Shown here piece by piece: positions 26,289 to 50,742 of a DNA stretch of 64,000 nucleotides. Position 1 is the stretch's first letter. Each line of letters opens with the position of its first letter. Below the pieces are notes generated by a model. It did not search any database. It was not told where the DNA came from and was given only the letters and a program-made list of their open reading frames with translations. This DNA is from Tubulanus polymorphus (lineage: Eukaryota; Animalia; Nemertea): assembly GCF_964204645.1 (NCBI RefSeq), contig NC_134034.1, positions 7,512,862 to 7,576,861 on the forward strand, read 5' to 3'. The position numbers and the translations under genes were made by a program.

Positions 26289-26646
26289 TGGCGTTAAGAA
26301 AAAGGCTAGATCCGAGAAACAAATTAAATGGGCAAGAGAATTAGGTAAAAGATCTGCAGAATTAAAAAAAGCTAAGAAAAAGAAATTAACTGATATAAAT
26401 GAATCACAGACTTTATCTGATATTGATTCAAATAATAATCCATCTGATTCTTCTAATGCTGGAAGTAATTATAAATTATATATTTCAATTGGATTAGTAA
26501 CAGTTATTATATTATCCGGTGTAATATATAAATTAAAATTCAAATCTGATGATAATGATTCCGATGATAATAAACCTATCATACCAGAAAATAAGTCAAA
26601 TCATAAAGTCATTGAAACTAAATCTAAATTATTATTAATGGATTAA
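26281..26646 (+). CDS. Small basic single-pass membrane protein
   Basis: Homolog of 8838-9206. Confidence 0.75.
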   Translation: MSDGVKKKARSEKQIKWARELGKRSAELKKAKKKKLTDINESQTLSDIDSNNNPSDSSNAGSNYKLYISIGLVTVIILSGVIYKLKFKSDDNDSDDNKPIIPENKSNHKVIETKSKLLLMD

Positions 26647-26652
26647 AATAAG

Positions 26653-28381: not shown

Positions 28382-28497
28382 CTATTTATATACCTATGTA
28401 TTAGATAACCTAATACCTGATACCCTATTAGATACCTTAAATACTTAAAACCCCCTTTTTATTTACTATTATTTTATACAATTTTCAACCTTTATTA

Positions 28498-29382
28498 TTA
28501 TTTGATTGTTAGATAATTAATTTCTGAATCACTTTCATCATCACTCTCCAATTCATTATCAGGCCCTAACAATTTATTCAAATGCTCTACCGTATCTTCA
28601 TAAATAATTGGTTTATTGATATACTTATTAGGCATCTCAACTATATCTTTATTTTCTGATATAAGTTTCATAGAATCTTTATTATCAATGCGCTTTCCTG
28701 TATTTTCATTATCATCTTTATTAGTGTTTGTTCCTAATATTTCATTTACAGTGTTTGATCCTAATATTTCATTAGCATCGGTTAAATCTAATTCATTTTT
28801 ATTAGGTGTTGCTAATAAAAAGTCTTCATATAATTCTTTACCATTTACTTTTTTATTTGAAACAAATTTTGTAACATATCTAAATGGGTGTTCTATAAAT
28901 TCTCTTAAACCAACGCGTTCTATAACATTAGTAATATGTGAATTTGTATTCATATGTTTATTCCAATTTGATGGAGCGTTTGAAAATTCACCTTTACAAT
29001 AATCACAATAATTTCTATTTTTACTAACATTTAATATTATTGCATTATTATATGTAGAAGGTATTACATTATTTGATGTAGAGGGTATTACATTATTAGA
29101 TGTAGTAGGTATTACATTATTAGATGTAGAAGGTATTACATTATTAGATGTATTAGGTATTACATTATTAGATGTAGAAGGTATTACATTATTATCAATT
29201 ACATTACATAAATTATCAACAACTTCACTTTTATTATTATCGATTTCTATTAGTTTAGTTTTATAAATTTTGAAAATAGGATCAAATATCAAAGCTATAT
29301 TACAAGGTATTACATAATATAAACCATCATTATTTTCATGTGTATCGATGTATGGAATATGTTTATATACTTTACCTTCCAT
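28498..29382 (-). CDS. Variable-slot protein with NNVIPSTS repeats and one zinc-finger-like motif
   Basis: 294 aa; 24-bp tandem repeat at ~29045-29200; YCDYCKG..WNKHMNTNSH. Confidence 0.7.
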   Translation of the reverse strand: MEGKVYKHIPYIDTHENNDGLYYVIPCNIALIFDPIFKIYKTKLIEIDNNKSEVVDNLCNVIDNNVIPSTSNNVIPNTSNNVIPSTSNNVIPTTSNNVIPSTSNNVIPSTYNNAIILNVSKNRNYCDYCKGEFSNAPSNWNKHMNTNSHITNVIERVGLREFIEHPFRYVTKFVSNKKVNGKELYEDFLLATPNKNELDLTDANEILGSNTVNEILGTNTNKDDNENTGKRIDNKDSMKLISENKDIVEMPNKYINKPIIYEDTVEHLNKLLGPDNELESDDESDSEINYLTIK

Positions 29383-29414
29383 TTATTATATAAATTTTCA
29401 TTAAAGTTAAAATT

Positions 29415-30667
29415 TTAATACATAACACTATTTAATTGAGAATTTACAATATTTAATTGCGCGTCAGATATAATATAAATGTGCATTTTAAAATTTTTGA
29501 TTCCTTTTTTTTTTGTCATGAATAATTGTATTCCATCTTTAGTGTTTTGTAGTTTTTTTCCAGAACCATGTAATGAATTATCCTCTGTTGTTCTAAAATC
29601 TAACCATAATGCATATTTATTACCGGTATAATAATCAATTTGATTAATATTACAATTTTCAGATGATTTCACTTTTTCATTCGTAAAATGTTTTCTAATT
29701 TCTGGCCATTGATCTATCATTCTCATTCCTTGACAAAATATTTTATTTGCTATTCCTTCGATAGTTATTTCTACTTATGTTATTTCAGGATTATAATAAT
29801 TATCAACATTTATTGCGCCATAAGTATATGTTGCAATGGTAAAAAATATTAATATACCTTTAATAGATCTTCTTGGGAAGTTAATATTCTCATTAATAAT
29901 TTCATCATTTGCATTAATAGTTACAGTTTTAAATTTATCAATATAATCATATAATAATGAAAATCCTTGATTGTATTTAGTTTGAATTATACTTGAAATA
30001 TTTTCATCAGTTACTGTATCATATTCTAAACATATATAGGTATATGGCCTATATTCGATAATTTATAACTCATATCTTTATTAACGCTAGATATTACAAT
30101 TTCATTTACAGGAGCAAATGTTATTTCGAATATAACCTCTTCTTGAATTGCGTATTTATATAAAGGTGCATTGTCAAAGTCTAATGGAATTTTATATTTG
30201 CTTCCATATATACTTTTTATCAATTTATCTACAGCATTAGTTAATATTGCGCTATTAGCTTCTGATCTTAATTTATTTTGGTTTTCTGATTGGATTCCTT
30301 GAAATATCATATTATTTCTATTTTCTTTAGTTAACCATAAATCTTTATAATGCATAAATAAATTATAATCATCTAATGAGAAAACTGTTTCTGGACCAAT
30401 CTTTATTGTTAACTTTTTAATCAAATATCTCCCAACATTATCGACAACATAATTATTATTATTACCGATTACTTTTATATCGGCTGATAAATAAATACTA
30501 TTTGGAACATAAAATGTATTTTGTGTTAATCGACGGATTCTAACATATAAAGTTTCATCGGGATTAATATTAGAAGGGTTATGAGTAATTATATGATGTG
30601 ATCTTTCTGCTTTAATAGCATTAGATATTCTATGATTCTTAGAAGGATTGATATAACTCCCACTCAT
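29415..30667 (-). pseudogene. Probable major capsid protein (copy B; insertion near 30040, stop near 29777)
   Basis: Near-identical to 3976-5224. Confidence 0.7.
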
Positions 30668-30687
30668 TTATTTAACAAAAAAATTAA

Positions 30688-32145
30688 TTATTTATTTTTT
30701 ATCATGTTTACTAATCCAAAAATAATTGCACTTACAACTGTAATTAAAAATAAAATAATATATTCAGCAGCAAAGTTAAGAATATTCCCAGCAGGTTTCA
30801 ATATAAAACCAACAATTGATGCAATAACTCCTGGCAATGCTGCAGCAGATTTTTTAGATAGTTCCCATAAATATTTTGCTAATTTCTTTAAACCATCCTT
30901 AACTTTATCTTGTATAGAATTATTATCATTCGGGGGTTTATCTGGTTTGTTAGGTGTAGGAGTAGATTTCAAAGCATTTGATATTGCTAAACCAATTGTT
31001 GTAAATAACATAGTTACTGCTGTTAGAATTGAAAGAATTGTTATTCCTTCAAACTTAAATAATAATTTTATTCTATCTTTCAATGATATTCTAGAATCTG
31101 GTTTGATTAGATATCTTTTAAAAACATCTTTTAATCTATCAATATTATAATCATATGATTTTAATAATAATTTAATTTCTTCTTTTTGTAATTCTATGTT
31201 ATATTCTAAATCATCTTTTTCTTTTTCTAAACGTAATTCTTTTTGCCTATATTCTATTTCATCAATAACTTTATTATCTCTATCTTATTTTGATTGTTCT
31301 ATTTCTTTATTTTTATCAGTTAATTCTTTTTCTAAAAATCTAATTTTAAAATCTCTTATACTTTTATCATGCATAATTTTACCAGATGCATGTCTTATAC
31401 TAATAATTTCTCTAATTGCTTTATCAGAAAATATATCTAAATCTTCTAATTGTTGATCTGTTGCATCAAGTAATCCCTTCGGTAAAAGTTTTTCAGTTTG
31501 AACTTCTCTTGAATTAGGTCTACTAGTTTTGGAAGTTATATTCTGTTCAGAACTTGTTTCTGGTTCTAAATTATTATCGATTGTTTCAAATAATTCATTA
31601 ATTCTTTGTTTAAATACTCTTTCATTTTTAATAATTTCTTCTTGTGTTACATCTTCTATTTCATTACTATTTCTTATTATTTTAATTCTATATAGTAATG
31701 AGTCAGACTTAAGCAAAGTTGATTCTGCTAATATTTTGTTTTGTTTTTCATAAGAGATATCAATATAATAATCATCTTTCAAACGATAACAATATTCACC
31801 ATCTAAAAACTTTAATTCTTTTACTAAAAGTCTGGCACCTCTATCATTGATATTATATCCAGATTCTTCAAATACATGTTTGAAATTATAAATATATTCA
31901 TAATATTCTAAATTTTCCTTTAATAAACCTGGATTTTCATTTTCAATAGGTATTCTCGATCTAGTTCTTCTATCAAATTCATCTGTTGATGGGGCTTTAG
32001 AACCACTATCTGCTAAATTGGAATTATATGCTGATTCATTACCATCATCAATATTAGTTTCTGCATCATTATAATCATCATCAATATATCCTTCATTATT
32101 AATTCCCATTTCTCCCATTTCATAATCTTCTCCGCCTTCTGCCAT
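30688..32145 (-). pseudogene. Coiled-coil/membrane protein (frameshift near 31285)
   Basis: Homolog of 2489-3889. Confidence 0.75.
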
Positions 32146-32161
32146 TTACATAATAAAAAAA

Positions 32162-33098
32162 TTAAAATTTAAAATATAATATTCCTCCGATTACAATTCA
32201 TATACAAGTTATAGCTAATTTAGTATTTTCATGGGATTTATTATCATCATTTAGTTTAATTATATCATGTTGAATATTATCAGTTTTTATATTTTCTGAT
32301 GTATTGTAATCTTTTATTTTAGAATCATTATTTAATTTAATATTATTAGTTTTAGTTTCTGTTGATTGAATGTGTTTTTTATTTTTTTCACCTTCCATTA
32401 ATTTTGGAGCAGTAATAATCTTTTTATTTATATCATTAAATCCAAATGAATTATTTATTGTTGCAGTTTTAATTAGATTAGTATAACCAATTATGTTTCC
32501 CATCTTTAATACTAAATCATTAGAAATAATTAATAGATTAGGGCCTATACAATAATTTAGTCTTACATGTGATTAATCTAAATAATTTTGATATCTTACA
32601 ATGTTTTCTGGAATAGATCTATTTTTATCATTATGAATGGAATCTTCAAATAAAACTTTAAATTGTTTTTGTGTATCGAATGAAGTATTTAAATTTCCAA
32701 TTATCGGTGATCTTGTTTCAACTTATGTATGTATGAAATCTGAATAACCTTTGAATTAGTTTATATTTAGAATTATTCAAATGATCATTCCAACTAATTC
32801 CACATCCTGTTGTTGCGCGATAAACAGCAAAATTTAATTGGTTCTGCCAATACTTCATATTAGATTTTAATAACCATTGTTTTTCATCTTTCAATTTTTT
32901 AAAATCAATTAAATATACATGAAATATATTTTCCATCTTTGCATTAAAATTATTAGTTTCAGTAACATAAATTTCTAAATTAGTTAATGAATCTAAAACT
33001 TCATTTCTATACGTAATATCTTTATTAAAATCTATTGCTGGAATATTATATTTAATTGATTTATTATATTGGAAAGCTTTTGGAAAACTATCTACCAT
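32162..33098 (-). pseudogene. Homolog of 15-1398 with an internal deletion
   Basis: FRFHTY is joined almost directly to VETRSP; ~450 bp missing relative to copy A. Confidence 0.75.
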
Positions 33099-33549
33099 TT
33101 ATATAATTAAAAAATTGATAATTTATTAATTCTTTTAATAATTTATCTTGTTCTTCAACTGTTATATGGCCATTTAAACTTATTATATAATCTAGTGTAT
33201 TCTTTAATTTATTAATTTCTTTTATATTAGTTTTAATTTTTTCTTTATTACTTTTTATATCTAATTTTGAACTTATACCAGTTAAAACACTTGATGATAA
33301 TCCTAATACACCAATTGATATAGCTAAAGGTGTTAATGGTGAAAATATTGCTAGAAATGTTATTACAGAACTAATTGTAACCGAACCACTTATAATCAAA
33401 TAATATATAATTTTACTTTTTAAATATTTTTTCTTTTTTATCTTTAAGTCACTTTCAAATTCTAATATTTGTTTTTCTAAATATGTTTTTAATTTAGTTT
33501 TATTTATATCATGAGGAATAATATCAATATTTTCAACTTTATCTTCCAT
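33088..33549 (-). CDS. Two-TM membrane protein
   Basis: IIYYLIISGSVTISSVITFLAIF and LAISIGVLGLSSSVLTGI; TAAATG start. Confidence 0.7.
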   Translation of the reverse strand: MEDKVENIDIIPHDINKTKLKTYLEKQILEFESDLKIKKKKYLKSKIIYYLIISGSVTISSVITFLAIFSPLTPLAISIGVLGLSSSVLTGISSKLDIKSNKEKIKTNIKEINKLKNTLDYIISLNGHITVEEQDKLLKELINYQFFNYINGR

Positions 33550-33569
33550 TTATTTAGCAAAAAAAATTA

Positions 33570-33987
33570 CTAATTAGTAAATTTATATGCTACAAATATA
33601 ACAACAACAGTTCCACCTAAAATCCAAATTATTTCATATTTCTGTTGTTCTTTACTTGGGGTATAATAATCTGATAATTTAGGTTTGTATAGATTTTTCT
33701 TTATTGGTTACCGCGTTATATAAACTCATTGCATCATCAACTGATTGAAAATCTCTATGTGAAATCTTCTGATCATATAATTCTTTATTGATGTAATCCA
33801 TATAGTTTTGTCTTTTTTCTCTATATTCTTCTGCTGCTTTATTGTATTTCTCTAATGCTAAGTTATGTCTTCTTTGTTCTCCTAATGAACTATTTTTATC
33901 AATATGCTTAAATAAATAACCACCACCAGTAAATGCTAAAGCGTTAACAATTGCCGATCCTATAATAGTTATAATTGCAGAAGCCAT
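33570..33987 (-). pseudogene. Small membrane protein (frameshift near 33685)
   Basis: Hydrophobic N-terminus MASAIITIIGSAIVNALAFTGGGYLF. The shifted frame continues PKLSDYYTPSKEQQKYEIIWILGGTVVVVFVAYKF. Confidence 0.65.
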
Positions 33988-34011
33988 TTATTTAGCAAAA
34001 AAATTATGCAT

Positions 34012-34233
34012 TTATATGGGAGGAATATATTTTTGTTTTTCCAAATAATCAATAGTTAAATTAGATAAAGTAACTGCTAATATTAATTTTAGAATATCAT
34101 TTATATCAAATCTATCAACATTAACACTTCCCATTTTGAATACTTTTTTTAATACCATTGAATAACCAACAGTTCCAACTGATAGTAATGCGCCATTATA
34201 TAATCCAGTTATTATCCACTTATTATCACTCAT
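34012..34233 (-). CDS. Small hydrophobic protein
   Basis: 73 aa, two hydrophobic helices, TAAATG start. Confidence 0.65.
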   Translation of the reverse strand: MSDNKWIITGLYNGALLSVGTVGYSMVLKKVFKMGSVNVDRFDINDILKLILAVTLSNLTIDYLEKQKYIPPI

Positions 34234-34590
34234 TTATTTATCAAAAAAATTACTATCATCAAAATATTTAGTTAACTTATTTATGATTAATTCAACATTT
34301 ATTTTATTACTAGTTTCATTTGTATATATTTCAATTATTATTTTTTTAATATCATCGATGATAAAATCTTCATCTAATTCATAAAATCTTAAAGATTCTC
34401 TAATTAAATTAGTAATCTTTTCTACATTTAAAGTTTCTTTATCTATTGTTGTTTCATACTCAAATGTTGTTTCATTAGAAAATGCAATATTTTTAATATG
34501 TGTAATTACATCATTAATGTTAAATTCCATTTCTTTCTCATGTTTAAAATCAAACCCAAAACATATACTCGGTCCAACAGTTAGATTCAT
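34234..34590 (-). CDS. Hypothetical protein
   Basis: 118 aa; TAAATG start; tightly packed in the gene array. Confidence 0.6.
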   Translation of the reverse strand: MNLTVGPSICFGFDFKHEKEMEFNINDVITHIKNIAFSNETTFEYETTIDKETLNVEKITNLIRESLRFYELDEDFIIDDIKKIIIEIYTNETSNKINVELIINKLTKYFDDSNFFDK

Positions 34591-34606
34591 TTATATAATG
34601 AAAAAA

Positions 34607-35362
34607 TTACTCTCTACATCTTATAACTAATTCATAAATTACAGGAAAGTTATTCAAATCAATTAAATAACCATTAAGATTTCTTATTTCTAATTTAAAA
34701 TTATTGAATTTAGGAATGCATGGTTTGAAATCACATTCAGTTAAATTATAATTTATTTGAGTTCCAAATTGTTTAACATTTTTTAGCGGTAAAATATTTA
34801 ATATACTAGAACTACAAATTGATTCTTTAGTTGCTTCGAAAGTTTTTGTAGGCTCGATTAAATTGCAATAAATATAAAAGTGTGTAAAAGGTATTATATT
34901 TGAGCCGCCTTCTGCGTTTCCAGTAACTGTTAGCGGTTTAATTCCTAACATTTTAGCCAGTGGTTTGTTTACCATAAATTTATGTTGTTCATTAGATATC
35001 TTTATTCTAATTTTATTAGTACTATCAATTTTATTAAATTTAATTTCAAATACAGAAGTGCCTCCGATTTTCAACCGAGCTTTTCTATTAATTTCCTGCG
35101 CTAATGATTCTAAATTATATAATCCTGGTTTTAAAAATATATGAAACCATTTATCTTTATTTCTCATATAAATCATAAACCCTCTATGTTCAAAAGTTTT
35201 ATCTGATATATTATAAAAAGAATTACATAAACTTATATTTACTAATTTTAAATCAACACAATTCTTGAATTCTCTATCTAATTGTACTAGTAAATTATGA
35301 GATTTATAATTTGTAAGCCTTCTAGAATCTACAAATATTCTGTATTCTTTTAATTCTACCGT
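34607..35362 (-). CDS. Probable minor capsid (penton) protein; start codon reads ACG
   Basis: Open from TAAACG at 35362 (copy C has ATG GTT GAA TTA AAA here). PGLYNLESL, FYIYCNLI, LEIRNLNGYLIDLN fit the Polinton penton pattern. Confidence 0.7.
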   Translation of the reverse strand, partial: TVELKEYRIFVDSRRLTNYKSHNLLVQLDREFKNCVDLKLVNISLCNSFYNISDKTFEHRGFMIYMRNKDKWFHIFLKPGLYNLESLAQEINRKARLKIGGTSVFEIKFNKIDSTNKIRIKISNEQHKFMVNKPLAKMLGIKPLTVTGNAEGGSNIIPFTHFYIYCNLIEPTKTFEATKESICSSSILNILPLKNVKQFGTQINYNLTECDFKPCIPKFNNFKLEIRNLNGYLIDLNNFPVIYELVIRCRE

Positions 35363-35379
35363 TTATTTTACATATTTTC

Positions 35380-35721
35380 TTATTCGAAATCTATTTCATG
35401 GTGACCTTTTTCATTCTTACCTTTGTATACGAAATAGAAATCTCCAGAACATAATTCTTCTAGATCTTCACTTGATAATCTATGAAATCTATCTGGTAAA
35501 TATGTTCTAAATTTATATGTATTTCCTTTTAATCCTTCATATTCTAAGTGTATAACTAATTTATCTCCATAGTTATTAGTAACTGTATCAATATTTGTAA
35601 TTAGATATTTCTTATGGATTGTTAATTCTGTTAACTTTTTGAATCTATAATCTACAGATTTTACATTTGAAGTATCTTTTATTCTATTTAAGAATTCACT
35701 GTGTGCTTGTTTACTCTCCAT
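35380..35721 (-). CDS. Small protein, possibly OB-fold/ssDNA-binding
   Basis: FKKLTEL..Y.IT..T.YG..LPDRF pattern, immediately downstream of PolB. Function is inference. Confidence 0.45.
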   Translation of the reverse strand: MESKQAHSEFLNRIKDTSNVKSVDYRFKKLTELTIHKKYLITNIDTVTNNYGDKLVIHLEYEGLKGNTYKFRTYLPDRFHRLSSEDLEELCSGDFYFVYKGKNEKGHHEIDFE

Positions 35722-35750
35722 TTATAATACATAATTTTATTAAAATTTGA

Positions 35751-38700
35751 TTAACACGTTAGAATTCTTTTCATTATCTCGTTCTCTTTTGTTTCTTCTC
35801 TTTTAAATTTTAAGTATTCATCTAAATTACAACCATAAGCAACTGTATGAATTCCATCATCTAAAATATATCTTTTATCATCAAATGGGTTTAGACTTAT
35901 CTTTTCAATTTCTTCAATAAACATTTCATGATCTTCAGATCTTAAACATCTCATCTTATGTTTTCTAACTTCTTCATTGAATATACAATTGATGTAATCT
36001 TTGAAATGAATATTCTTTTCTACTACACTTTTGGTTATTCCTTTTAACTTTTTAGCTTCATGTTCTTTAGTTTTATATGAATACATTTTAGATCTAATAC
36101 CAATGAATTCAATCATTTCTTCACCGCCTAATTCATCTTTGAATTTACCAGGACCTTTTTTATTATCATTGCTAAACAATTCATGATTTTTAGGATAGTT
36201 ACTGAAATCAAAATGATGTTTTAATGTTTTTAAATCATCAGTTATGTTATCAGTTTTTATCTTTTATATGTAAGAATCGGTATCAAAATATAAGATTTCT
36301 ATATGTTTTTCTCCAAAAAGTGGTTGTAATATATTATAATAGAATTCATACATTAGTAATTTTGATAATTCTAAAACTGAAGCGCCAACATAGATTGGTT
36401 TATTAAATTTCATAGATGTTCTTCTCATTTTAACTGCAGCTAAATTTTCATCAAATATTCTGTTACCAATGAACTTAGGATATGTTTGTAAATGTCTAAT
36501 TCTTTTACCATTACTAACTAACTCAATATCATTTCTATTTCTAATATTTTCACAAGTCTTACCATAGAATGCATTATTCATTAACTTGAAGAAATCTTTC
36601 TCGAAATCAGTTTTAGCTTCAGTTCTCTGTTTGGTGTTAAAATCTATATATTTTTCTAACCACTTAGATTGACTGAATGAAATATATCTATGTACTTTTT
36701 TTAGGATCATTCCTTGTTTTAGATAAAACTTTAACATTCTATAATGCACTACATAATTATATTTATCTTCTTGAGTTACCATTAACTTTTCTGTATGAAT
36801 ATGATTTTCAGGTTTAATTCTTTTTTGATAATTTGATAATTCTTCATGAGTTACAGTTTTATGTTCGGGACAGTATGCTAGATTTCTAGATTTAAATTTT
36901 TTATCTTCAGGATATTCTAAATCTACAACAAAGAAGTAACCAGTATCTGAATCATCTGCAATATCTAGAATTCTTTTCTTCCAATCAAATTTATCATTAT
37001 TTTCACGTTGTAAAACTTCAGTTAATTCAAATACTCCATAAGGTTGTGGTTCCATCATTGCCCAACCATACAAATTATTTGCATCTATATATAATAACTT
37101 ATATCCAGGGTTATCATTTACATTGAAATATCTATCCCCTAATACACCTGAAACTCCTCCTCTTATAGATTTTTCAAATAATAATAATTGATCGATATTT
37201 GTTAACAAATCCATTTTTATATCTGTAAATTTTAATCCACAATCCCATGTTAATCCTGGACTTGAATAACAATGACAAGGATCAATGATAAAATATTTTA
37301 GGTTTACATCTCTAAACCATTCGAATATATCCGATAATAATAATACATCCGATTTTAAATATATATCTACTTATTGCCCATGATTTTTCATTCCAAAATG
37401 ATTCCAAATATTCAATGTTCTATTATAGACTTCATCTTTAACATATTCATTTTTTAATTCATCATAGAATTGTTCTTTCAATAATTCAGTTATGTTAAAA
37501 TCATCATGATTTTTATAGAAAGAATATGGAATTGCTCCTTTATATCTCATTAATTTAAAATCATCATTATTTGGGTAGTGTTGTTTTAATATTTTTAATT
37601 CATCATCAACTAATGATTTTGATAAGTTATCTAATGAACTATTTAAAAATCTATATGAATCTATAAATCTTAGGCAACCAAATTGGAATGATATATAATT
37701 CTCAGATGTTTTAGCTAACATTCTAAATTTATAAGTTGGTATTTTATCTTTTGATCTATTTGAATTTAATCTTTCTATTTCATTATTAATTTCTTCTATT
37801 TTATGGCATAACTGTTTGATGAATAAATGTGCATCATATCCTGATAGATTATGAAATATAACTGGTACAAAATTAATTTTCTTAGCTTGTAAGTTACAAT
37901 TCTCATGTGCAGCGCCTCTAAACTTTCCATTCAAATGATCATGGTCTCTTACTTTTTTATCTTTATCATTAAATATCTTTTCACAATAATAACATTTATC
38001 TGCAAACGCAAATTCTTCTTTATCTTCTTCTGTCATTATAATTTCTATATTTGTATTCAATAATTTACTAAATCTTATTTCATATTCAATTAATAAGTCA
38101 CAAAAATGATTGATAACATTTTCATTTCTATAATGATAATATTCACTTTCAATTAGTTCTGGATAATCAGATTTTATATATAACCCGAAAGCTGCAGCTG
38201 ATTGATGAATCTTTTTAATAGTATTTGTTTTTGGTGGTTCATCTGAAAAATCATTTTCATTAGAATTTAATTTCTTTCTTTTATAATATATTTTTTTTCT
38301 ATCTTGATCAGTTAATTCTTTATTTAATGATTCAAAATCTCCATATATTACAAATGGTACTTTATTTTTGTAATCATATTTTTTGAATTCTAATATTTTA
38401 TCCTTTTCATTTGGTAAAATTAATTTACAATAATCATGATTTTCACATAATTGTTTATGATTTAATAATGCACTTTCATTACTGAATCTATGTAAACATT
38501 TTCTACAAAGATATATTTTATTATCAAAATCATTTTCTGATTTAAAAAATAAATCAATTCTTTTAATCCACATGTAATGATTCTCATAATATAATATATC
38601 TATAACATCGTTTGAATCATAATCTTTTGATAGATATAAAGGTTCTAATGTATAATGTTTAATATTATTACCTTTTGTTTTTGGTAATTTGATTAAATCG

Positions 38701-39791
38701 AATACATTTATCTTTATATTATTATCTCTTTCTATTTTTGGGATATTTTTAATTCTAACAGGATACTTATCTATCTTATAATTATTTTCAAATGGTTTAT
38801 AATGAGTTGATCTAAAACTATGTGTAATATCTTCTGTTGGATGTAAGCAACTTATTATAGCCCATAGAAAACATTTATCATCTTCATTTTGTACATTTAT
38901 TACAGCATTAGTTTTAAATGGTAGTTTAATATAACTCGATGCTTCAATATCTGGTTCTTTATAATATGATACATTATTTTCATCAATTGGTTTTGATTTA
39001 GTTAACTTATTATATTTTGTGTTATAAACATGTAAAGTTATAAATATTATTTCATCAAATAATAAACCAGATCCTTCAAAATATTTCTCTTCTATTTTAG
39101 TTTTTACTTCATTATAACATTTATCTAATTTATCATCTATATGTTGTTTTGAAATAATATGTTGTGAATGAGAATTTATATTATATATTGGTTTATCTTC
39201 AGATTTTATAAACTTTTCTTTAACTGATATACTAATTTTAGGGTATTCAACATCTGTAATTATTTTTATTATTTCTTTCATATTTTCTAAATGTTTTTTA
39301 TTTTCTTCTAATGTTTTTCCTTTATGAAATTTAAACTCGATAGCTGCTGGGCCAATATCACTTTTAAATGCTTCGGTTATCTCTATATCTGTTTTATTAT
39401 CTAATGAATTAATATAATTTCTTACATCTTCCATGTATGGTCTTTTATTGTTTAATTTATTTTTTATGCTTTTAATTGTCTTTTGTTTCTTATCATTATC
39501 ATTATCAAAATATTCTTCACCTAAAATATCATTATTGATATTTCTAATATGACTTTTAGATTTTAAATGTTCATTATAATATCTTTTATCACTGAATGAT
39601 TGATTACATGTATCACATTTGTATGTTTCTTTTTCATTCTTTAATTCTTCTAATTTAGTTTCTAATATATCATCTTTATATTCTAGTTTCAATTTATTCT
39701 CTAAATGTGTTTTAGTTTTATTGTGTCTTGCTTTTTGGGATTTATCTATATTGATATTACATGTTGGGCAGTAGTACTTATTTGCTTCCAT
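35751..39791 (-). pseudogene. polB: Protein-primed family B DNA polymerase (pPolB) with N-terminal zinc fingers and endonuclease VII-like insert; disrupted near 37371 and 36264
   Basis: ExoI YGDFES, ExoII FHNLSGYD, DHDHLNGKFRGAAHENCN, motif A YIDANNLYGWAM, motif B KLMNNAFYGKT, motif C YFDTDS. Confidence 0.95.
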
Positions 39792-40139
39792 TTTAATACT
39801 AAAATTTTTATTAAAATTGATTTTAGAAGTTATTCATTTATATTTTATTCATATATATGAATATTTTAAGAGTAATAGGGAATATCTTGTTTCATATCAA
39901 AGGTCGAAAGGGCTAGTGAGTAAAAAATGAAAAATATGAAAATAATAATAATTTCTATTTGAATTAGGAGTGAAACTCATATAAAATGAAAAATAAATTC
40001 GAGTGTGCGAGAATTATTTTTCATTTTATATGAGTTTCGCTACTAATTCAAATAGAAATTGTTATTATTTTCATATTTTTCATTTTTTATGAGCTCGACC
40101 TTTCGACCTTTGGTATGAAACAAGATATTCCCTATTACT
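39678..40139. repeat. Right TIR of copy B (contains the first 38 codons of polB and the palindrome 39871-40139)
   Basis: Reverse complement of 20318-20676 plus 22916-23019 with only a few differences. Confidence 0.95.
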
Positions 40140-40223
40140 AGTGTCTTCCAAATAATATTTGACCTTGTAGGCCGACTTAAAAAGTTTTTCGACTGATGCC
40201 GCGTTGAATTTTCGTGCGTTCAT
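40140..40223 (-). pseudogene. 5' end of the DUF3987-like gene interrupted by copy B
   Basis: MNARKFNAASVEKLFKSAYKVKYYLEDT joins in frame to LPDETLHFLEVFERAF... at 20311. Confidence 0.75.
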
Positions 40224-40954
40224 GCTGACGTCTCGATCTCCTTCAGTCAGCAACAGAGTGCAATGGTTTTATAGGGGTACAGACAATATTGTCGCATTCC
40301 AAACTAAGTTACTGATAGGCTGGAGTGTCTGAATTTCATGAGATTTGCCGAAACCCGCATTGTAACATTGAGGTGTTTTTCATGTGCTTACATTGCCCCA
40401 TGGAAAACCAAGTAAGCGATTGGTGTGGTTTACTGAAATGCATGGGGATTACTGCAATCCGTATTGTTAGATAGAGACGTGTAAGTTTCAAAATACGTTT
40501 CCGAAAAATTGAATCTATTATTATGATAATCACTATTATTCATTTGCACATATAAATGGCCAACTTCAGACCCAGGTAACATACATGTGTTACTTGGACA
40601 TGAAACATGTCGGAAGTGGAGACGTTTAAAGATGAGTAATAGGGGTAATGGGCTTTCATACGTCAGGTCGAAAGGTCGAGCTCATAAAAAATGAAAAATA
40701 TGAAAATAATAACAATTTCTATTTGAATTAGTAGCGAAACTCATAAAAAATGAAGAATAATTCTCGCACACTCGAATTTATTTTTCATTTTCTACTCGCT
40801 AGAAAAAGTGTGAGTAAAGTGTGAGTGAAATAACTCATATTTTAGAAAAGTAACGAGTAATTAACGAGTTGATTAAAATTAGATTTTTAAACATAAAAGT
40901 GTGAGTAAAGAGTGAGTAATAATTCATATTTTGACATTGAATATTTATATTTGA

Positions 40955-41603
40955 ATGAGTTTTAATGAAAATTCAATTATAAAAATGAAGACAGAAGAAG
41001 AACCCAACTTTAAAATCGAAATAAAAGAAACCAATAAATTATTTTCACAGTTTAACATTAAAAATTATATCTCAGCAACAAATTTAGTGTCCGCAAGGTA
41101 TTATAAAATTGATAAGATTTCTATGATTAATCAAATATCATCAAATGAAACATATTTAATTACTGAACTAGTAGATACTTTTGATAATGGCGTTAAAAAT
41201 CCTAAATTGTTCAATACAGTTTTAAATTTTAAAGGAACTTTAGATGAAAACATAATTAATATTCTTAAAATTCCTTTCAATGAAAGAAATGATGATTTAA
41301 TACTTTCTAAAGATTACAATGATTTGATTAACTTAAGAATTGAAAAAAGACAATTATATTATTTCAATTTTGATAATAAACAAATTATCTATAATGAAAA
41401 TTCATCAAATATTGGCATTCAATGTGAATTAGATAATGAAAAATCATATAAAGATATTGCAATTCGATGTGATTTAGAAAATGAATTCAAAAGATTTAAT
41501 CCTTATGAAAAAATTCATTGTTATTGCAAAAGGTAACTATTCAAAATCACATAAATCAAAGCATTATGAAACAATTAAACATAAAAACTGGCGTAAAGAG
41601 TAA
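40955..41603 (+). pseudogene. TIR-encoded protein with C-terminal zinc-finger-like motif (second copy ~44052-44697 on minus)
   Basis: ORF 40955-41536 has a late frameshift. The other TIR copy reads HCHCGGKYSKSHKSKHYETIKH. Confidence 0.6.
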
Positions 41604-41677
41604 CAATTCTACATTAGAAATAAATTATATAGTCAAATAATTATTGAATTGAGTTAAATGATTTAAATATCTAATAG

Positions 41678-41925
41678 ACTGTTAAAATGATAAATTGTTT
41701 GACAGTTGAAATGATTAATTGTTTGACATTTAAAATGATAAATTGTTTGACAGTTGAAATGATAAATTGTTTGACAGTTAAAATGATAAATTGTTTGACA
41801 GTTGAAATGATAAATTGTTTGACAGTTGAAATGATAAATTGTTTGACAGTTGAAATGATAAATTGTTTGACAATTGAAATGATAAATTGTTTGACAGTTG
41901 AAATGATAAATTGTTTGACAATTAT
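41678..41925. repeat. 24-bp tandem repeat (ATGATAAATTGTTTGACAGTTGAA), about 10 copies; ~4 inverted copies at 43882-43976
   Basis: Directly visible. Confidence 0.95.
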
Positions 41926-42064
41926 AATGTTAAATTGTTTGGTTGTAAATTTAATTGTTATTTGATTTAATCATTTAAAAGTTTAATATTTTAAAAATGA
42001 TTATAAAATATTTAATTAAAAACTAGCAAATATTTATTAATTTTCTAATTTCTTTCTTAAATAA

Positions 42065-42283
42065 ATGGATGGTTTCATCCCAACTGGGAAAAGTGATTTG
42101 AAGCATTATCTTGTAGCAGGAGTTTTAATATTGGCGGCATTATATTTTTACTATGAGAATATTTCAAAAGATTTGATGAATGAAAATGATAAATTGAGTA
42201 AAAAATTAAAGAAGTTAAATGGAAACAATCACAGAAATAAAAAGAATAAAAAAGTTAATTTAGAAAATGATTTAGAGAATTAA
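42065..42283 (+). CDS. Small single-pass membrane protein of the satellite element
   Basis: TAAATG start; YLVAGVLILAALYFYY TM followed by a basic coil. Confidence 0.6.
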   Translation: MDGFIPTGKSDLKHYLVAGVLILAALYFYYENISKDLMNENDKLSKKLKKLNGNNHRNKKNKKVNLENDLEN

Positions 42284-42321
42284 AACAGCATCTTTTAATT
42301 TCATATATTTTGACTATAAAA

Positions 42322-42624
42322 ATGAGTGAAAATATATTAAACTTATTACATCTAATATATAAAAATCAACAGAATATTAAATCAATTATTATGCTTACAG
42401 GTTTATTTTCTTTTTCAATTTATAGTATAAAACAGTTGTTAGAATTCTATGATTGCTGTAAAATTAGATACACTGAATTAATAGAAAATATAAATTATAT
42501 TTCAGATAGATTGAATAATATTAAATGCTGTGAAGTATGTAATAAAAGATATAAAGATTTTAGGAGTTTAAAAACTCATAAATATATTCATGAGCTAAAT
42601 GATAAACTGTATAATTCAAATTAA
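42322..42624 (+). CDS. Small protein with hydrophobic segment and C2H2 zinc finger
   Basis: CEVCNKRYKDFRSLKTHKYIH. Confidence 0.6.
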   Translation: MSENILNLLHLIYKNQQNIKSIIMLTGLFSFSIYSIKQLLEFYDCCKIRYTELIENINYISDRLNNIKCCEVCNKRYKDFRSLKTHKYIHELNDKLYNSN

Positions 42625-42744
42625 GCAATAGACTGTTAAATTGGCTGAAATATATAAAAATAGATTATATTATAACTATTTCTATACTTAGATTAATAAT
42701 TTATGTTTTTAATTTCTATAAAAACTAATACACTTGCACAGTAC

Positions 42745-43870
42745 TTAAGAAGTGTTTTTCTCAGTATTTCACTGACCATTTAAACAGCATTGATGATGAT
42801 ATTAAATGGACTACCGAGGGTGAGGTCGAGTTACAGGCTTCGTCACAAGCCGATCTAGAGATTTGCAGTGTAGAGAGGGCTCTAGCGTTTCTCGACACAT
42901 ATGCGGTCATCAATGAGGATGGGTCGATTCGTACTAAAGTATTCCGAAAAACCACACACACAGACCAATATCTAAATTTCAACAGCAACCACCCGTTAGA
43001 ACACAAAAGGGGTGTAGTTAAAACCCTTCTACACAGGGCGGACACCATAGTTAGTGATGATAGTGACAGACAGTCGGAGAAACAACATATTAAGGAGGTT
43101 CTCTCATGGAATGATTACCCTAATTGGGTCTTCAACAAAGTCACCATGCTTCCGAAGCCCAAACCTGTAGTCAGAAATAAGCGAGACACCCAGGCTCCGC
43201 GTAAGAGATCGGTCGTAGTACCATATGTGAAGGGCATGTCTGAACAAATCAGACGGGTGATGAAAGACTACAACATTAGTGTGTATTTTAAACCGGTGAA
43301 CACGTTACGCCAGTTATTAGTTAGACCGAAGGACCCGGTACCTAAAGAACGCATTACAGGACCGGTGTACCATGTTAAATGTGAATCTTGCGATGCGAGT
43401 TATGTTGGTGAAACTGAGCGCTCCTTGAGAGCCCGGTTTGGTGAACACCGTCGACCTAGCTCTATGACGTCAGAGGTATCCCAACACATCCATACTGACA
43501 ATCCTGATCACTCTGTTGATATAGGCAACACAGACATTTTGACGGTGGAACCCCGGTGGTTCGAACGAGGTGTTCAGGAGTCATTTTACATATACCTGAG
43601 ACACCCCACGCTGAATAAAGACTTTGGGAGATTTGCTCTACCCCCTGTATGGAATAACATCCTTAAGGCAGCAGATGACGCGCGGGAGCCTTCACAGACC
43701 AGCTGACGAGATCCGGCTGTGTCGTCACATCAACAACATCTGATGACGTCACATTAAGCCTGACGATGCCTACAGAATGTAGGTGAAAGCTCGCTCTTGT
43801 GAGTATCAAAGTTTATCCAGTGTATGAGTGTTAAACTGTTCCTAATTTGGATATTCCTGGATAGTAAAGA
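42745..43870 (+). mobile_element. 5'-truncated Penelope-like retroelement (RT C-terminus plus GIY-YIG endonuclease)
   Basis: LAFLD, VFRKTTHTDQYLNFNSNHP, GPVYHVKCESCDASYVGETERSLRARFGEH; stop at 43706. Confidence 0.92.
43750..43801 (+). ncRNA. Minimal type I hammerhead ribozyme in the Penelope 3' repeat (mirror copy 49063-49114 on minus)
   Basis: CTGACGA, stem GCCTAC/GTAGGT, GAAA-GCTC, with flanking CACA..AGC / GCT..TGTG pairing. Confidence 0.75.
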
Positions 43871-46191
43871 ATGTTTAATGGAAACAATTTATCATTTTAA
43901 CTGTCAAACAATTTATCATTTCAACTGTCAAACAATTTATCATTTCAACTGTCAAACAATATATCATTTTAACAGTCTATTAGATATTTAAATCATTCAA
44001 CTCAATTCAATAATTATTTGACTATATAATATATTTTTTATGTAGAATTGTTACTCTTTACGCCAGCTTTTATGTTTAATTGTTTCATAATGCTTTGATT
44101 TATGTGATTTTGAATATTTACCTCCGCAATGACAATGAATTTTTTCATTAGGATTAAATCTTTGAATTCATTTTCTAAATCACATTGAATTGCAATATCT
44201 TTATATGATTTTTCATTATCTAATTCACATTGAATGCCAATATTTGATGAATTTTCATTATAGATAATTTGTTTATTATCAAAATTGAAATAATATAATT
44301 GTCTTTTTTCAATTCTTAGGTTAATCAAATCATTGTAATCTTTAGAAAGTATTACATCATCATTTCTTTCATTGAAAGGAATTTTAAGAATATTAATTAT
44401 GTTTTCATCTAAAGTTGCTTTAAAATGTAAAACTGTATTGAACAATTTAGGATTTTTAACGCCATTATCTTAAGTATCTACTAGTTCAGTAATTAAATAT
44501 GTTTCATTTGATGATATTTGTTTAATCATAGTAATCTTATCAATTTCATAATACCTTGCGGACACTAAATTTGTTGCTGAGATATAATTTTTAATGTTAA
44601 ACTGTGAAAATAATTTATTGGTTTCTTTTATTTCGATTTTAAAGTTGGGTTCTTCTTCTGTCTTCATTTTTATAACAGAATTTTCATTAAAACTCATTCA
44701 AATATAAATATTCAATGTTAAAATATGAATTATTACTCACACTTTACTCACACTTTTATGTTTAAAAATCTAATTTTAATCAACTCGTTAATTACTCGTT
44801 ACTTTTCTAAAATATGAGTTATTTCACTCACACTTTACTCACACTTTTTCTAGCGAGTAGAAAATGAAAAATAAATTCGAGTGTGCGAGAATTATTTTTC
44901 ATTTTTTATGAGTTTCGCTACTAATTCAAATAGAAATTGTTATTATTTTCATATTTTTCTTCTTTTATGAGCTCGACCTTTCGACCTTTCGTATGAAAGC
45001 CCATTACCCCTATTACTAAGATGTATTGGCACTATGTGAGAATAACGACGTTTTACTGGATTGGTTGATGAAATTTGGTAAGACAAAACAAAGACTTTTT
45101 GTTGATGTGCATCTGTATATTCATCGGATATCATTTCTAAACGTCTAACTTTGTTTTCTAGATTTGATTGCTGCATCCATGATTTGCCCAGACGACGGAA
45201 TTGACATGTCATGGGTACATGAACAACAAAAATCGGATGGCTACATATGGCGTTGCAAAAAATGCCGAAAACAAAGGTCTATCAGAAACAAATCCTAGTT
45301 TAGTGGTAGCCACTTGTCATTAGCTAACGTACTCCAACTGACGTACTTGTGGACCCGTGGGATTTCGGCCTAGAATGCGAAACACGAACTGAAACTAGGC
45401 TCAGACCACACGGTGGTTGACTGGTTCAATTTCTGTCGAGAGGTATGTTATTCTACCGTGATGGATAAATCCGAAAAGATCGGCGGTGTTGGAAAAATTG
45501 TGGAGATCGATGAATCCAAGTTTGGTAAACGTTAGTTCCATCGCGGCAAACATGTCGAGCGCCAATGGGTTTTTGCAGGTGTTGAACGCGGTCCACCACC
45601 AGTTCGTTGTTTTATGGTTGCTGTTCCGGAAAGATCGCGTGAAACCCTGCTCAACGTTTTAAAAGATTGGGTTGAAGATGGGACAACCGTGATTTTGGAT
45701 TGTTGGCGTGCGTACGACACGTTAGAAAACGAAGGTTTCCAACATTTGAAGGTAAACCATCCCATACATTTTAAAGATCTGGAGACTGGGGCTCATACGA
45801 AGAAGGAATGTGGCACCTTGTCAAATGTTCCCTGCCACGATTTGGCACTCGAAAAGCATTACACGACTCGTATTTCGCAGAGTTCATGTGGAGACGACGA
45901 TTGTCGGAAGATAGCAATGTATTTGTTGAATTTTTAAAGATTGTTTCAAAAATTTATAAAGTTCATGATCAATAAATTGCATCTCTAATAATTCATAAAC
46001 GAAAAACTTATTATTATTCGAAAGCGACGGACACCACAATCGAGGATTCACACATTAGCATCGACTGACGTATGGGGAGTTACAAGTTCAAACATTGAAT
46101 TAACCCTTTATTAAGCCTAAACCTCACCCTAACCCTAATCCTTGATCTAACCAACTATCTGAACCTGACTGGAGCCTTAAAAATAGAATAT

Positions 46192-46672: not shown

Positions 46673-46888
46673 ATATTCTATTTTTAAGGCTCCAGTCAGG
46701 TTCAGATAGTTGGTTAGATCAAGGATTAGGGTTAGGGTGAGGTTTAGGCTTAATAAAGGGTTAATTCAATGTTTGAACTTGTAACTCCCCATACGTCAGT
46801 CGATGCTAATGTGTGAATCCTCGATTGTGGTGTCCGTCGCTTTCGAATAATAATAAGTTTTTCGTTTATGAATTATTAGAGATGCAAT

Positions 46889-47846
46889 TTATTGATCATG
46901 AACTTTATAAATTTTTGAAACAATCTTTAAAAATTCAACAAATACATTGCTATCTTCCGACAATCGTCGTCTCCACATGAACTCTGCGAAATACGAGTCG
47001 TGTAATGCTTTTCGAGTGCCAAATCGTGGCAGGGAACATTTGACAAGGTGCCACATTCCTTCTTCGTATGAGCCCCAGTCTCCAGATCTTTAAAATGTAT
47101 GGGATGGTTTACCTTCAAATGTTGGAAACCTTCGTTTTCTAACGTGTCGTACGCACGCCAACAATCCAAAATCACGGTTGTCCCATCTTCAACCCAATCT
47201 TTTAAAACGTTGAGCAGGGTTTCACGCGATCTTTCCGGAACAGCAACCATAAAACAACGAACTGGTGGTGGACCGCGTTCAACACCTGCAAAAACCCATT
47301 GGCGCTCGACATGTTTGCCGCGATGGAACTAACGTTTACCAAACTTGGATTCATCGATCTCCACAATTTTTCCAACACCGCCGATCTTTTCGGATTTATC
47401 CATCACGGTAGAATAACATACCTCTCGACAGAAATTGAACCAGTCAACCACCGTGTGGTCTGAGCCTAGTTTCAGTTCGTGTTTCGCATTCTAGGCCGAA
47501 ATCCCACGGGTCCACAAGTACGTCAGTTGGAGTACGTTAGCTAATGACAAGTGGCTACCACTAAACTAGGATTTGTTTCTGATAGACCTTTGTTTTCGGC
47601 ATTTTTTGCAACGCCATATGTAGCCATCCGATTTTTGTTGTTCATGTACCCATGACATGTCAATTCCGTCGTCTGGGCAAATCATGGATGCAGCAATCAA
47701 ATCTAGAAAACAAAGTTAGACGTTTAGAAATGATATCCGATGAATATACAGATGCACATCAACAAAAAGTCTTTGTTTTGTCTTACCAAATTTCATCAAC
47801 CAATCCAGTAAAACGTCGTTATTCTCACATAGTGCCAATACATCTT
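46889..47846 (-). pseudogene. Mirror copy of the Merlin transposase
   Basis: Reverse complement of 45018-45975. Confidence 0.85.
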
Positions 47847-50496
47847 AGTAATAGGGGTAATGGGCTTTCATACGAAAGGTCGAAAGGTCGAGCTCATAAA
47901 AGAAGAAAAATATGAAAATAATAACAATTTCTATTTGAATTAGTAGCGAAACTCATAAAAAATGAAAAATAATTCTCGCACACTCGAATTTATTTTTCAT
48001 TTTCTACTCGCTAGAAAAAGTGTGAGTAAAGTGTGAGTGAAATAACTCATATTTTAGAAAAGTAACGAGTAATTAACGAGTTGATTAAAATTAGATTTTT
48101 AAACATAAAAGTGTGAGTAAAGTGTGAGTAATAATTCATATTTTAACATTGAATATTTATATTTGAATGAGTTTTAATGAAAATTCTGTTATAAAAATGA
48201 AGACAGAAGAAGAACCCAACTTTAAAATCGAAATAAAAGAAACCAATAAATTATTTTCACAGTTTAACATTAAAAATTATATCTCAGCAACAAATTTAGT
48301 GTCCGCAAGGTATTATGAAATTGATAAGATTACTATGATTAAACAAATATCATCAAATGAAACATATTTAATTACTGAACTAGTAGATACTTAAGATAAT
48401 GGCGTTAAAAATCCTAAATTGTTCAATACAGTTTTACATTTTAAAGCAACTTTAGATGAAAACATAATTAATATTCTTAAAATTCCTTTCAATGAAAGAA
48501 ATGATGATGTAATACTTTCTAAAGATTACAATGATTTGATTAACCTAAGAATTGAAAAAAGACAATTATATTATTTCAATTTTGATAATAAACAAATTAT
48601 CTATAATGAAAATTCATCAAATATTGGCATTCAATGTGAATTAGATAATGAAAAATCATATAAAGATATTGCAATTCAATGTGATTTAGAAAATGAATTC
48701 AAAGATTTAATCCTAATGAAAAAATTCATTGTCATTGCGGAGGTAAATATTCAAAATCACATAAATCAAAGCATTATGAAACAATTAAACATAAAAGCTG
48801 GCGTAAAGAGTAACAATTCTACATAAAAAATATATTATATAGTCAAATAATTATTGAATTGAGTTGAATGATTTAAATATCTAATAGACTGTTAAAATGA
48901 TATATTGTTTGACAGTTGAAATGATAAATTGTTTGACAGTTGAAATGATAAATTGTTTGACAGTTAAAATGATAAATTGTTTCCATTAAACATTCTTTAC
49001 TATCCAGGAATATCCAAATTAGGAACAGTTTAACACTCATACACTGGATAAACTTTGATACTCACAAGAGCGAGCTTTCACCTACATTCTGTAGGCATCG
49101 TCAGGCTTAATGTGACGTCATCAGATGTTGTTGATGTGACGACACAGCCGGATCTCGTCAGCTGGTCTGTGAAGGCTCCCGCGCGTCATCTGCTGCCTTA
49201 AGGATGTTATTCCATACAGGGGGTAGAGCAAATCTCCCAAAGTCTTTATTCAGCGTGGGGTGTCTCAGGTATATGTAAAATGACTCCTGAACACCTCGTT
49301 CGAACCACCGGGGTTCCACCGTCAAAATGTCTGTGTTGCCTATATCAACAGAGTGATCAGGATTGTCAGTATGGATGTGTTGGGATACCTCTGACGTCAT
49401 AGAGCTAGGTCGACGGTGTTCACCAAACCGGGCTCTCAAGGAGCGCTCAGTTTCACCAACATAACTCGCATCGCAAGATTCACATTTAACATGGTACACC
49501 GGTCCTGTAATGCGTTCTTTAGGTACCGGGTCCTTCGGTCTAACTAATAACTGGCGTAACGTGTTCACCGGTTTAAAATACACACTAATGTTGTAGTCTT
49601 TCATCACCCGTCTGATTTGTTCAGACATGCCCTTCACATATGGTACTACGACCGATCTCTTACGCGGAGCCTGGGTGTCTCGCTTATTTCTGACTACAGG
49701 TTTGGGCTTCGGAAGCATGGTGACTTTGTTGAAGACCCAATTAGGGTAATCATTCCATGAGAGAACCTCCTTAATATGTTGTTTCTCCGACTGTCTGTCA
49801 CTATCATCACTAACTATGGTGTCCGCCCTGTGTAGAAGGGTTTTAACTACACCCCTTTTGTGTTCTAACGGGTGGTTGCTGTTGAAATTTAGATATTGGT
49901 CTGTGTGTGTGGTTTTTCGGAATACTTTAGTACGAATCGACCCATCCTCATTGATGACCGCATATGTGTCGAGAAACGCTAGAGCCCTCTCTACACTGCA
50001 AATCTCTAGATCGGCTTGTGACGAAGCCTGTAACTCGACCTCACCCTCGGTAGTCCATTTAATATCATCATCAATGCTGTTTAAATGGTCAGTGAAATAC
50101 TGAGAAAAACACTTCTTAAGTACTGTGCAAGTGTATTAGTTTTTATAGAAATTAAAAACATAAATTATTAATCTAAGTATAGAAATAGTTATAATATAAT
50201 CTATTTTTATATATTTCAGCCAATTTAACAGTCTATTGCTTAATTTGAATTATACAGTTTATCATTTAGCTCATGAATATATTTATGAGTTTTTAAACTC
50301 CTAAAATCTTTATATCTTTTATTACATACTTCACAGCATTTAATATTATTCAATCTATCTGAAATATAATTTATATTTTCTATTAATTCAGTGTATCTAA
50401 TTTTACAGCAATCATAGAATTCTAACAACTGTTTTATACTATAAATTGAAAAAGAAAATAAACCTGTAAGCATAATAATTGATTTAATATTCTGTT
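47847..50496 (-). mobile_element. Mirror copy of the right part of the satellite element, including the Penelope insert
   Basis: Reverse complement of 42368-45017. Confidence 0.9.
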
Positions 50497-50508: not shown

Positions 50509-50742
50509 ACTAGGGGTACGCGATGAAGATCTCCCAATGAGAAAATCATTAGGCGAGAGGTATCTGCCATCATCAGGAGTTGTGGGATGTCGTCCAATGG
50601 GTCTTTCATTGAGTAGGTTGGCGACTTCGAATACCTACTCAATGAAAGACCCATTGGACGACATCCCACAACTCCTGATGATGGCAGATACCTCTCGCCT
50701 AATGATTTTCTCATTGGGAGATCTTCATCGCGTACCCCTAGT
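50509..50742. repeat. Perfect fold-back: 110-bp arms, 14-nt loop, made of BEL integrase sequence
   Basis: 50509-50618 is the reverse complement of 50633-50742. Confidence 0.95.

Follow-up and report, generated by a model that had tools for sequence, protein, structure and literature searches.

Mavericks (Polintons) are defined by target-site duplications (TSDs) of 6 bp and by AGT-type end motifs, and the end motif has been tied to protein priming (PMC8097293, part of the text); a non-autonomous form bears the name Polinton-1N1_DR (PMC9341505, part of the text). In butterflies, mobile Polintons without polB, long terminal inverted repeats (TIRs) that duplicate genes, and retroelement cargo are described in the accessible part of 10.1101/2025.02.07.637071. 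The subject of this report is a 4383-bp element at positions 40635-45017 of a 64,000-nucleotide stretch of the genome of the nemertean Tubulanus polymorphus (contig NC_134034.1, positions 7,512,862 to 7,576,861), hereafter the window. Like the non-autonomous Polintons/Mavericks, the element has Polinton ends, a 6-bp TSD and no enzymes in the copy at hand, and it is presumably mobilised in trans. Non-autonomous Polintons were reportedly described by Kapitonov and Jurka in 2006 and are said to be deletion derivatives or non-coding; unlike these, the element has no more than 160 bp in common with the observed helper copies and bears three orphan genes under helper-type start words. The polB-less butterfly Polintons resemble it in having long TIRs that duplicate genes and a retroelement inside, but they keep core genes and exceed 12 kb (same preprint, accessible part), whereas the element has no core gene and spans about 3-4 kb as seen. 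We regard it as a helper-dependent, gene-bearing Polinton derivative, with open reading frame (ORF) 1 encoding a putative early DNA binder and ORF2 a putative late protein at membranes or particles, and assign this reading a probability of roughly 0.6. Non-autonomous Polintons are known, but one with genes of its own under the two promoter-like classes of its helper was not found in the literature searched.

The element lies between two perfect copies of AAGATG (40629-40634 and 45018-45023, forward strand), within a relic of a Merlin/IS1595-type transposase; the right flank matches DDE_Tnp_IS1595 (Pfam, E value, 1.3e-8). Both ends carry AGTAATAGGG, identical at 10 of 10 bases to the Polinton ends in the window, and the end motif AGTAAT..., of the AG type known from Polintons, differs from (AGT)2 by one base. 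The terminal 160 bp (40635-40794, forward strand) are shared with the outer arm of the Polinton terminal palindrome at 91.9% identity and are likely to be the recognition end for integrase and pPolB, as judged from this conservation. Within them, bases 26-160 agree with the Polinton arm at 129 of 135 positions on the left and 130 of 135 on the right, and bases 11-25 agree with Polinton copies A and B at 8 of 15. The 269-bp palindrome of the Polintons stops at base 160 in the element, where a GAGT-rich repeat tract (GAGT/TGAGT; 40795-40954, forward strand) takes the place of the inner arm. The tract contains GAGT eight times against 1.8 expected, a count reached in 0 of 200 shuffles; the Polinton end is likewise rich in the word, at a count equalled by 0 of 200 shuffles, and the Polinton core is poor in it. 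The left TIR measures 1138 bp (40635-41772, forward strand) and is 96.8% identical to the right TIR (43882-45017, reverse strand). An initial annotation of this locus had claimed Polinton-identical ends with a near-identical arm of about 130 bp, a 6-bp TSD, TIRs of about 1.1 kb and repeats in place of the inner palindrome arm, all of which agree with these measurements.

From left to right, the element consists of the TIR end, the GAGT tract, ORF1, 11 units of a 24-bp tandem array (41677-41941, forward strand), ORF2, ORF3, a Penelope-like insertion, four further array units and the right TIR. The left TIR holds ORF1 and the first array units, and the right TIR contains the four units, cut mid-unit, a broken copy of ORF1, an upstream word at 44691 and the shared terminus. 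The array, also noted initially, has a frame open over 92 aa, a possible fourth gene, whose start scores like background. The insertion is a 5'-truncated retroelement of 1150 bp (42732-43881, forward strand; boundary taken from the ends of read contigs), which we take to be Penelope-like from its RT-thumb, GIY-YIG and hammerhead motifs; it had no match in Pfam or Rfam. Without it the element measures 3233 bp, which is only a minimum because the right array ends mid-unit at the Penelope junction; the initial figure of about 3.3 kb holds in that restricted sense, and the insertion may hide a deletion of element sequence. Neither a pPolB gene nor an rve integrase gene was detected in 40635-45017 by the ORF list, tblastn or Pfam, and the largest ORF has 193 aa. 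Since the copy at hand lacks enzymes but has Polinton ends, it likely depends on a Polinton for copying and insertion. Its terminal and array patterns gave 0 matches among viral contigs, and six metagenome matches were dismissed as chance 19-mers with no similarity beyond them.

The putative helper family is represented by Polinton copy B (20318-40139), which is bounded by the TSD AGTGTC and 269-bp terminal palindromes and encodes an rve integrase (E value, 1.5e-9), an A32 ATPase (E value, 8.4e-12; both Pfam), a capsid protein and a pPolB in three pieces, the middle one with B-family motifs. Copy B had been called complete, which is true of its TIRs and TSD but not of its polymerase. This polymerase shows 28-40% identity to an IMG/VR contig that also encodes a related integrase. 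The gene set (pPolB, rve integrase, A32 ATPase, jelly-roll capsid) is like that of Beta-class-module adintoviruses (PMC8502044, part of the text), and the word "satellite" occurs 0 times in the accessible part of that paper. Copy A (1-12760) is partial and, in most of the blocks that it shares with B, 87-96% identical to it.

A TA(2-4)ATG start was found at most Polinton genes and also at ORF1, ORF2 and ORF3; its enrichment was significant in copy B (Fisher, p = 7e-6), copy A (p = 0.012) and the element (p = 0.004) and absent from host-like DNA (p = 1.0). Ahead of the Polinton genes (1-12760 and 22914-39870) stand two classes of upstream word, both ending in TAAATG. The first, TTTAATRAAAAT, is found before pPolB, the adjacent gene and two unrelated accessory genes, and the second is a T-run ahead of capsid-module genes. 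Profiles were built from Polinton genes only (four of the replication class and six of the capsid module; positions -30 to -6, TAAA excluded), and in leave-one-out runs 0 to 13 of 876 background ATGs scored as high. With the replication profile, the ORF1 start at 40985 ranked first among the 77 ATGs of the element, and five of the 876 background ATGs scored as high; with the capsid-module profile, the ORF2 start ranked third of 77, with a single background ATG of 876 as high. The respective words are TTTAATRAAAAT at 40961-40971 and TAATTTYTTT..TAAATAAATG at 42046-42064, both on the forward strand. The former lies 327 nt from the element end, compared with 325 nt for the word before pPolB in the Polinton, and the corresponding ATG distances are 351 and 349 nt, despite unrelated intervening sequence. 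Words ending in TAAATG resemble poxvirus late starts. ORF1-3 look like genes, ORF1 and ORF2 are likely wired to the word classes of the helper, and the existence of two classes suggests staged, possibly non-host transcription.

ORF1 (40985-41536, forward strand) encodes an orphan protein of 183 aa from its likely start, or 193 aa if the upstream ATG at 40955 is used. Close to the 3' end, a frameshift divides the C-terminal zinc finger, and the right copy is interrupted by a stop at codon 76 as well as by a frameshift, with the zinc-finger segment in a separate frame (about 44048-44164), the only place where the finger is whole. The TIR-encoded zinc-finger protein proposed initially is thus real as to the finger, but its ORF is whole in neither copy; with both ORF1 copies broken, the copy at 40635-45017 is decayed and dead. 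Several weak signs of coding are nevertheless present. The codon-position composition of ORF1 agrees with that of Polinton genes, the family-polymorphic substitutions listed for it are synonymous in 2 of 2 cases (a further listed change is missense and nearly fixed in the reads), and indels of 3 bp made up two of three inside ORFs against none of nine outside (p = 0.045; 12 of 51 rows). ORF2 (42065-42283, forward strand; 72 aa) is an orphan with a basic tail and one transmembrane segment; the TAAATG start claimed for it stands as a TA(2-4)ATG start, but the segment is borderline (KD19 1.51). ORF3 (42322-42624, forward strand; 100 aa) combines a long hydrophobic helix with one C2H2-like finger. 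Its designation as a C2H2 protein is qualified by a Pfam match under the cut-off (E value, 0.01). One intact relative, 68% identical and ungapped over 85 aa, retains the zinc ligands.

As previously claimed, the three genes are without counterpart in copy B: against the window outside the element and its duplicate (see below), the best tblastn hit had an E value of 0.17, and no match was found to copies A and B or a third Polinton fragment, nor in pairwise and profile comparisons with the candidate counterparts tried. For ORF1, HMMER found no homologue among 1.84 billion representatives, and a 5.8-billion word search (lengths 106-338 only) and viral contigs gave none either. Pfam, PHROGs and NCBIfam yielded only sub-threshold or compositional matches for ORF1-3, a search of viral and prokaryote collections with the ORF3 alignment turned up no locus, and an Rfam scan returned nothing. 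The predicted fold of ORF1 was uninformative (pLDDT 30), and with that of ORF3 (pLDDT 78, pTM 0.38) nothing in the viral library matched at an E value below 2; a match of the latter to a planarian virus-like element (E value, 3.0) is not evidence. Two proposed kinships were rejected, namely ORF1 as a remote OB-fold/single-stranded DNA-binding relative of a 113-aa Polinton gene (BLAST E value, 4; hhalign probability, 0.5% with a two-sequence profile) and ORF2 as a relative of the two small hydrophobic ORFs of the Polinton (no match). The word GIQCE in ORF1 (41387-41470) and EVQTE in a capsid-module protein of the Polinton (31288-32145) presumably resemble the dynein-light-chain binding motif.

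Reads were mapped to 36000-43880 of the window, a range that leaves the right TIR outside, from four runs of three samples in two studies; X1, X2 and X3 are contig runs, and X5 comprises raw reads of the second study, of which about 12 in 100 were read. All 30 depth bins of this stretch were covered in the four runs. Median depth in X5 was 632 for pPolB, 442 for the TIR, 149 for ORF2-3, 48 for Penelope and 34 for the Merlin flank. In the same run, 703 reads left the element terminus into flanks that agreed at 0.34, as would be seen with many insertion sites. The copy number was estimated at 23 to 154 for an assumed genome of 300 to 2000 Mb, with no single-copy baseline. The bin with most of the array reached a depth of 786 in X5, and other copies therefore have longer or more arrays. 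These results demonstrate that the element represents a mobile family in multiple copies, whose ends and TSD are of the Polinton type. Several insertions reside together with the autonomous family, as seen from the mixed flanks and the Polinton core depth of 632 in X5, and the core exceeded the element 4.2- to 10.7-fold over the runs (8.2- to 10.7-fold in the three contig runs). The outcome that the initial annotation had set against its proposal, a single copy with neutrally evolving ORFs, is therefore not what the family reads, the start words and the signs in the ORFs reveal. Among the best 24 of 2133 loose ends, the groups at 39880 and 40120 (649 and 546 reads) showed element-type bases 11-25 on other Polinton ends. 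These bases do differ from copies A and B, as had been stated, but they are shared with other Polinton subfamilies and are therefore no marker of the element; they may instead point to the real helper, which is more likely a Polinton subfamily with element-like first 25 bases than copies A or B. In reads and contigs of three runs, position 39931 was also joined to 42109, linking the ORF2 start to an opposite-strand Polinton-type inner-arm end; this joint appears to be a low-copy recombinant or deleted derivative.

In run X1, the Polinton and the element were over-represented together. Relative to Penelope, the element interior stood at 68.7 in X1 compared with 5.5 in X2, 4.5 in X3 and 3.1 in X5, and pPolB at 657 compared with 45, 48 and 13, respectively, so that both were about 10- to 15-fold over-represented against host repeats in X1 relative to X2 and X3. 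One interior variant, present as a single contig per run, had 26 times the depth in X1 that it had in X2, whereas Penelope had only 2.7 times. Diverged AT-rich relic contigs differed only 1.7-fold between X1 and X2 (medians of 43.6 and 25.8, from 7 and 3 contigs among 24 listed, at loci that are possibly not the same), and plain AT bias is therefore disfavoured. The Polinton and the element may have been amplified together in one of the three samples, a lead for co-replication.

A mechanism consistent with these results can be proposed. The pPolB of an active helper Polinton would prime at the shared terminal bases and copy the element from end to end; the long terminal palindrome would be dispensable for this, and the multiplied GAGT words may be binding sites. 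The rve integrase of the helper would then insert the linear copy with a 6-bp duplication. ORF1, which occupies the slot of pPolB with the same word at an equivalent distance from the terminus, would be made with the replication genes, and its zinc-finger protein probably binds DNA at ends or promoters in favour of the element. The small membrane protein of ORF2, whose gene follows the capsid-module word, would be expressed alongside the particle genes and probably has a role in assembly or exit, and ORF3 probably encodes a zinc-finger regulator that is membrane-anchored or forms a coiled coil. The Polinton ends, TSD, start words and lack of enzymes make the borrowing of integrase and pPolB, as initially suggested, a likely route, and packaging in helper particles is hinted at only by the capsid-class word of ORF2. 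Like those of a viral satellite nucleic acid, the genes of the element are unrelated to its helper. It is doubtful, if conceivable, that the element is a true satellite, that is, a linear DNA of 3-5 kb that is freely amplified when a Polinton is reactivated, expresses its early DNA-binding and late membrane genes within the two-step transcription of the helper, rides in helper particles and inserts by the helper integrase.

Several points weigh against a helper-dependent, gene-bearing derivative. Its interior is known from the Penelope-interrupted copy alone, and core genes could lie at the Penelope site. The word classes were first spotted by eye and the profiles built afterwards; ORF3 is a poor fit to both classes, with 33 and 149 of the 876 background ATGs scoring as high, and the exact replication-class word arose by chance in 81 of 1000 element shuffles, so that its position only, and not the bare word, is the evidence. 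The left and right ORF1 differ by 2 synonymous, 8 missense and 1 stop change, a pattern that looks neutral; considered by itself, the sign of selection on ORF3 is weak (conservative changes, 14 of 27, p = 0.10; chance of no stop, 0.11), and homology and fold searches gave no function for any of ORF1-3. Part of the 703 terminal reads may stem from Polinton ends, and the TIR-to-interior depth ratio was 2.96, 1.85, 1.13 and 0.99 in the four runs, by which the expected 2:1 is not sharply tested. As for X1, contig depth is not copy number, the assembly was possibly made from this sample and the library types are unrecorded; in X5, read starts did not pile up at the terminus.

The element may instead be an internal deletion product of a full-length Polinton subfamily outside the window, with ORF1-3 as TIR or accessory genes of that subfamily, an explanation that we consider rather unlikely although it is the strongest rival. 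The core was perhaps lost at the Penelope insertion, where the right array is cut mid-unit, and the inherited Polinton words and ends are explained equally well. Accessory genes turn over, as A and B differ in one slot; other Polinton ends share element bases 11-25; and both gene-containing TIRs of about 2 kb with mobile polB-less Polintons in butterflies (10.1101/2025.02.07.637071, accessible part) and Maverick TIRs of up to 1,447 bp (PMC8097293, part of the text) are on record. However, after the terminal word A and B have pPolB at one end, whereas the element has ORF1 at both, the 269-bp palindrome of all three Polinton ends in the window is missing from the element end, and no joint of interior to core gene was seen among the best 15 of 327 joints, a weak argument. 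The broken state of both ORF1 copies, the lack of an ORF1 homologue among 1.84 billion representatives and the ease with which AT-rich DNA yields open frames and TAAATG-like words would also suit a passenger like a miniature inverted-repeat transposable element, in which nothing but the terminal 160 bp counts and the ORFs are accidental or dead cargo. This is improbable in view of the class-specific words at the right distance, the gene-like codon composition, the in-frame indels, the synonymous family variants and the intact diverged ORF3 relative.

Even less probable is an obligate second segment of a bipartite Polinton. Bidnaviruses have single-stranded DNA, do not integrate and need both segments, which share terminal sequences, with replication of the pPolB type. 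The element is like such segments in having termini shared between different molecules, its gene set is complementary to and non-overlapping with that of the Polinton, and the Polinton-to-element ratio is similar in the three contig runs (8.2-10.7). The helper, unlike a bidnavirus segment, looks self-sufficient. In copy B a single molecule carries the genes for polymerase, integrase, ATPase and capsid, and the viral collection yielded nothing related to ORF1 or ORF3. The ratio is 4-11 to 1 rather than near 1, although integrated copies need not mirror virion ratios. With the element 4-11 times rarer than the Polinton core, the bidnavirus-style segment of the initial annotation was not sustained. 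An assembly chimera from rearranged, possibly amplified DNA is the least credible explanation of all. An overlapping inverted duplication of 3.8 kb at 100% identity, with AATATTCT microhomology at both joints, speaks for it, but the TSD is perfect, the TIRs are 3.2% diverged and 30 of 30 depth bins were covered in four runs of two studies, by which it is largely refuted for the family. We therefore retain the helper-dependent, gene-bearing derivative as the preferred reading.

Transpovirons, with which the element had also been compared, are about 7 kb long, encode a fusion of an SF1 helicase with a dead pPolB and have a giant-virus host (PMC5499653, part of the text). The element is like them a small linear TIR-bounded double-stranded DNA with few genes, no capsid, zinc-binding proteins and dependence on a helper. 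Unlike them it has no helicase, is integrated in the genome of an animal and has the same ends as its helper; the comparison failed at the SF1 helicase/pPolB fusion, which is not in the element copy, where the longest ORF has 193 aa. No such element is described in the accessible parts of PMC3014272, PMC6431247, 10.1101/2024.01.15.575659, PMC11296320, PMC8502044 and PMC11131425, and neither a gene-bearing satellite of animal Polintons nor TAAATG start words in Polintons were found in the titles and opening abstract lines of the literature searched, although transposable-element libraries may hold such families. The finding bears on the open question of whether animal Polintons live as replicating, packaged viruses. 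A parasite that keeps only ends and two start words would mark the cis signals needed by polymerase, integrase and transcription, and the element indicates that insertion can do without the long terminal palindrome. Should the joint excess in X1 be true, an animal has been named in which Polinton replication could be watched directly; should the element prove to be no more than a deletion derivative, it would still form a well-defined non-autonomous family, of modest importance.

The 3.8-kb inverted duplicate (46673-50496, reverse strand) is 100% identical to 42368-46191 and is not an independent insertion. It is inserted into an otherwise continuous reading frame and is either an amplification artefact or a template-switch event. 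The terminus at 47847 was considered as a second insertion and rejected on account of the same flank and 100% identity. A further foldback lies at about 50550-50700.

The Polinton ends at 12492-12760, 20318-20586 and 39871-40139 are imperfect palindromes of 269 bp, each of which starts and closes with the terminal 10-mer; the predicted fold reaches -98 kcal/mol (DNA parameters), and the arm order is alike in all three. In copy A, the capsid ORF has a weak match to Capsid_N (Pfam, E value, 0.003), and neither the Polinton capsid nor the pPolB pieces had a useful sequence match in PDB. Beside the capsid gene, an accessory slot under the same upstream word holds different genes in A (5258-6439) and B (28498-29382), both of which contain repeats and zinc fingers. 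ORFs at 23368-24025 and 10979-11620, at the Polinton end opposite pPolB, presumably encode HNH-like endonucleases by their motif, with no match in Pfam. We take two small helper ORFs to be cupiennin-like and gasderminX-like, and the adintovirus class is likewise our assumption from motifs rather than from a tree. The third Polinton fragment (14838-17305) is 71-79% identical to B and has small ORFs of its own, with no terminus seen. The left TIR of copy B is split by about 2.2 kb (20680-22914), likely a host repeat, part of which recurs at 59868-60500. Copies A and B are AT-rich, and the window also holds host repeats; neighbouring sequences include Penelope-, Merlin- and Pao-like ones.

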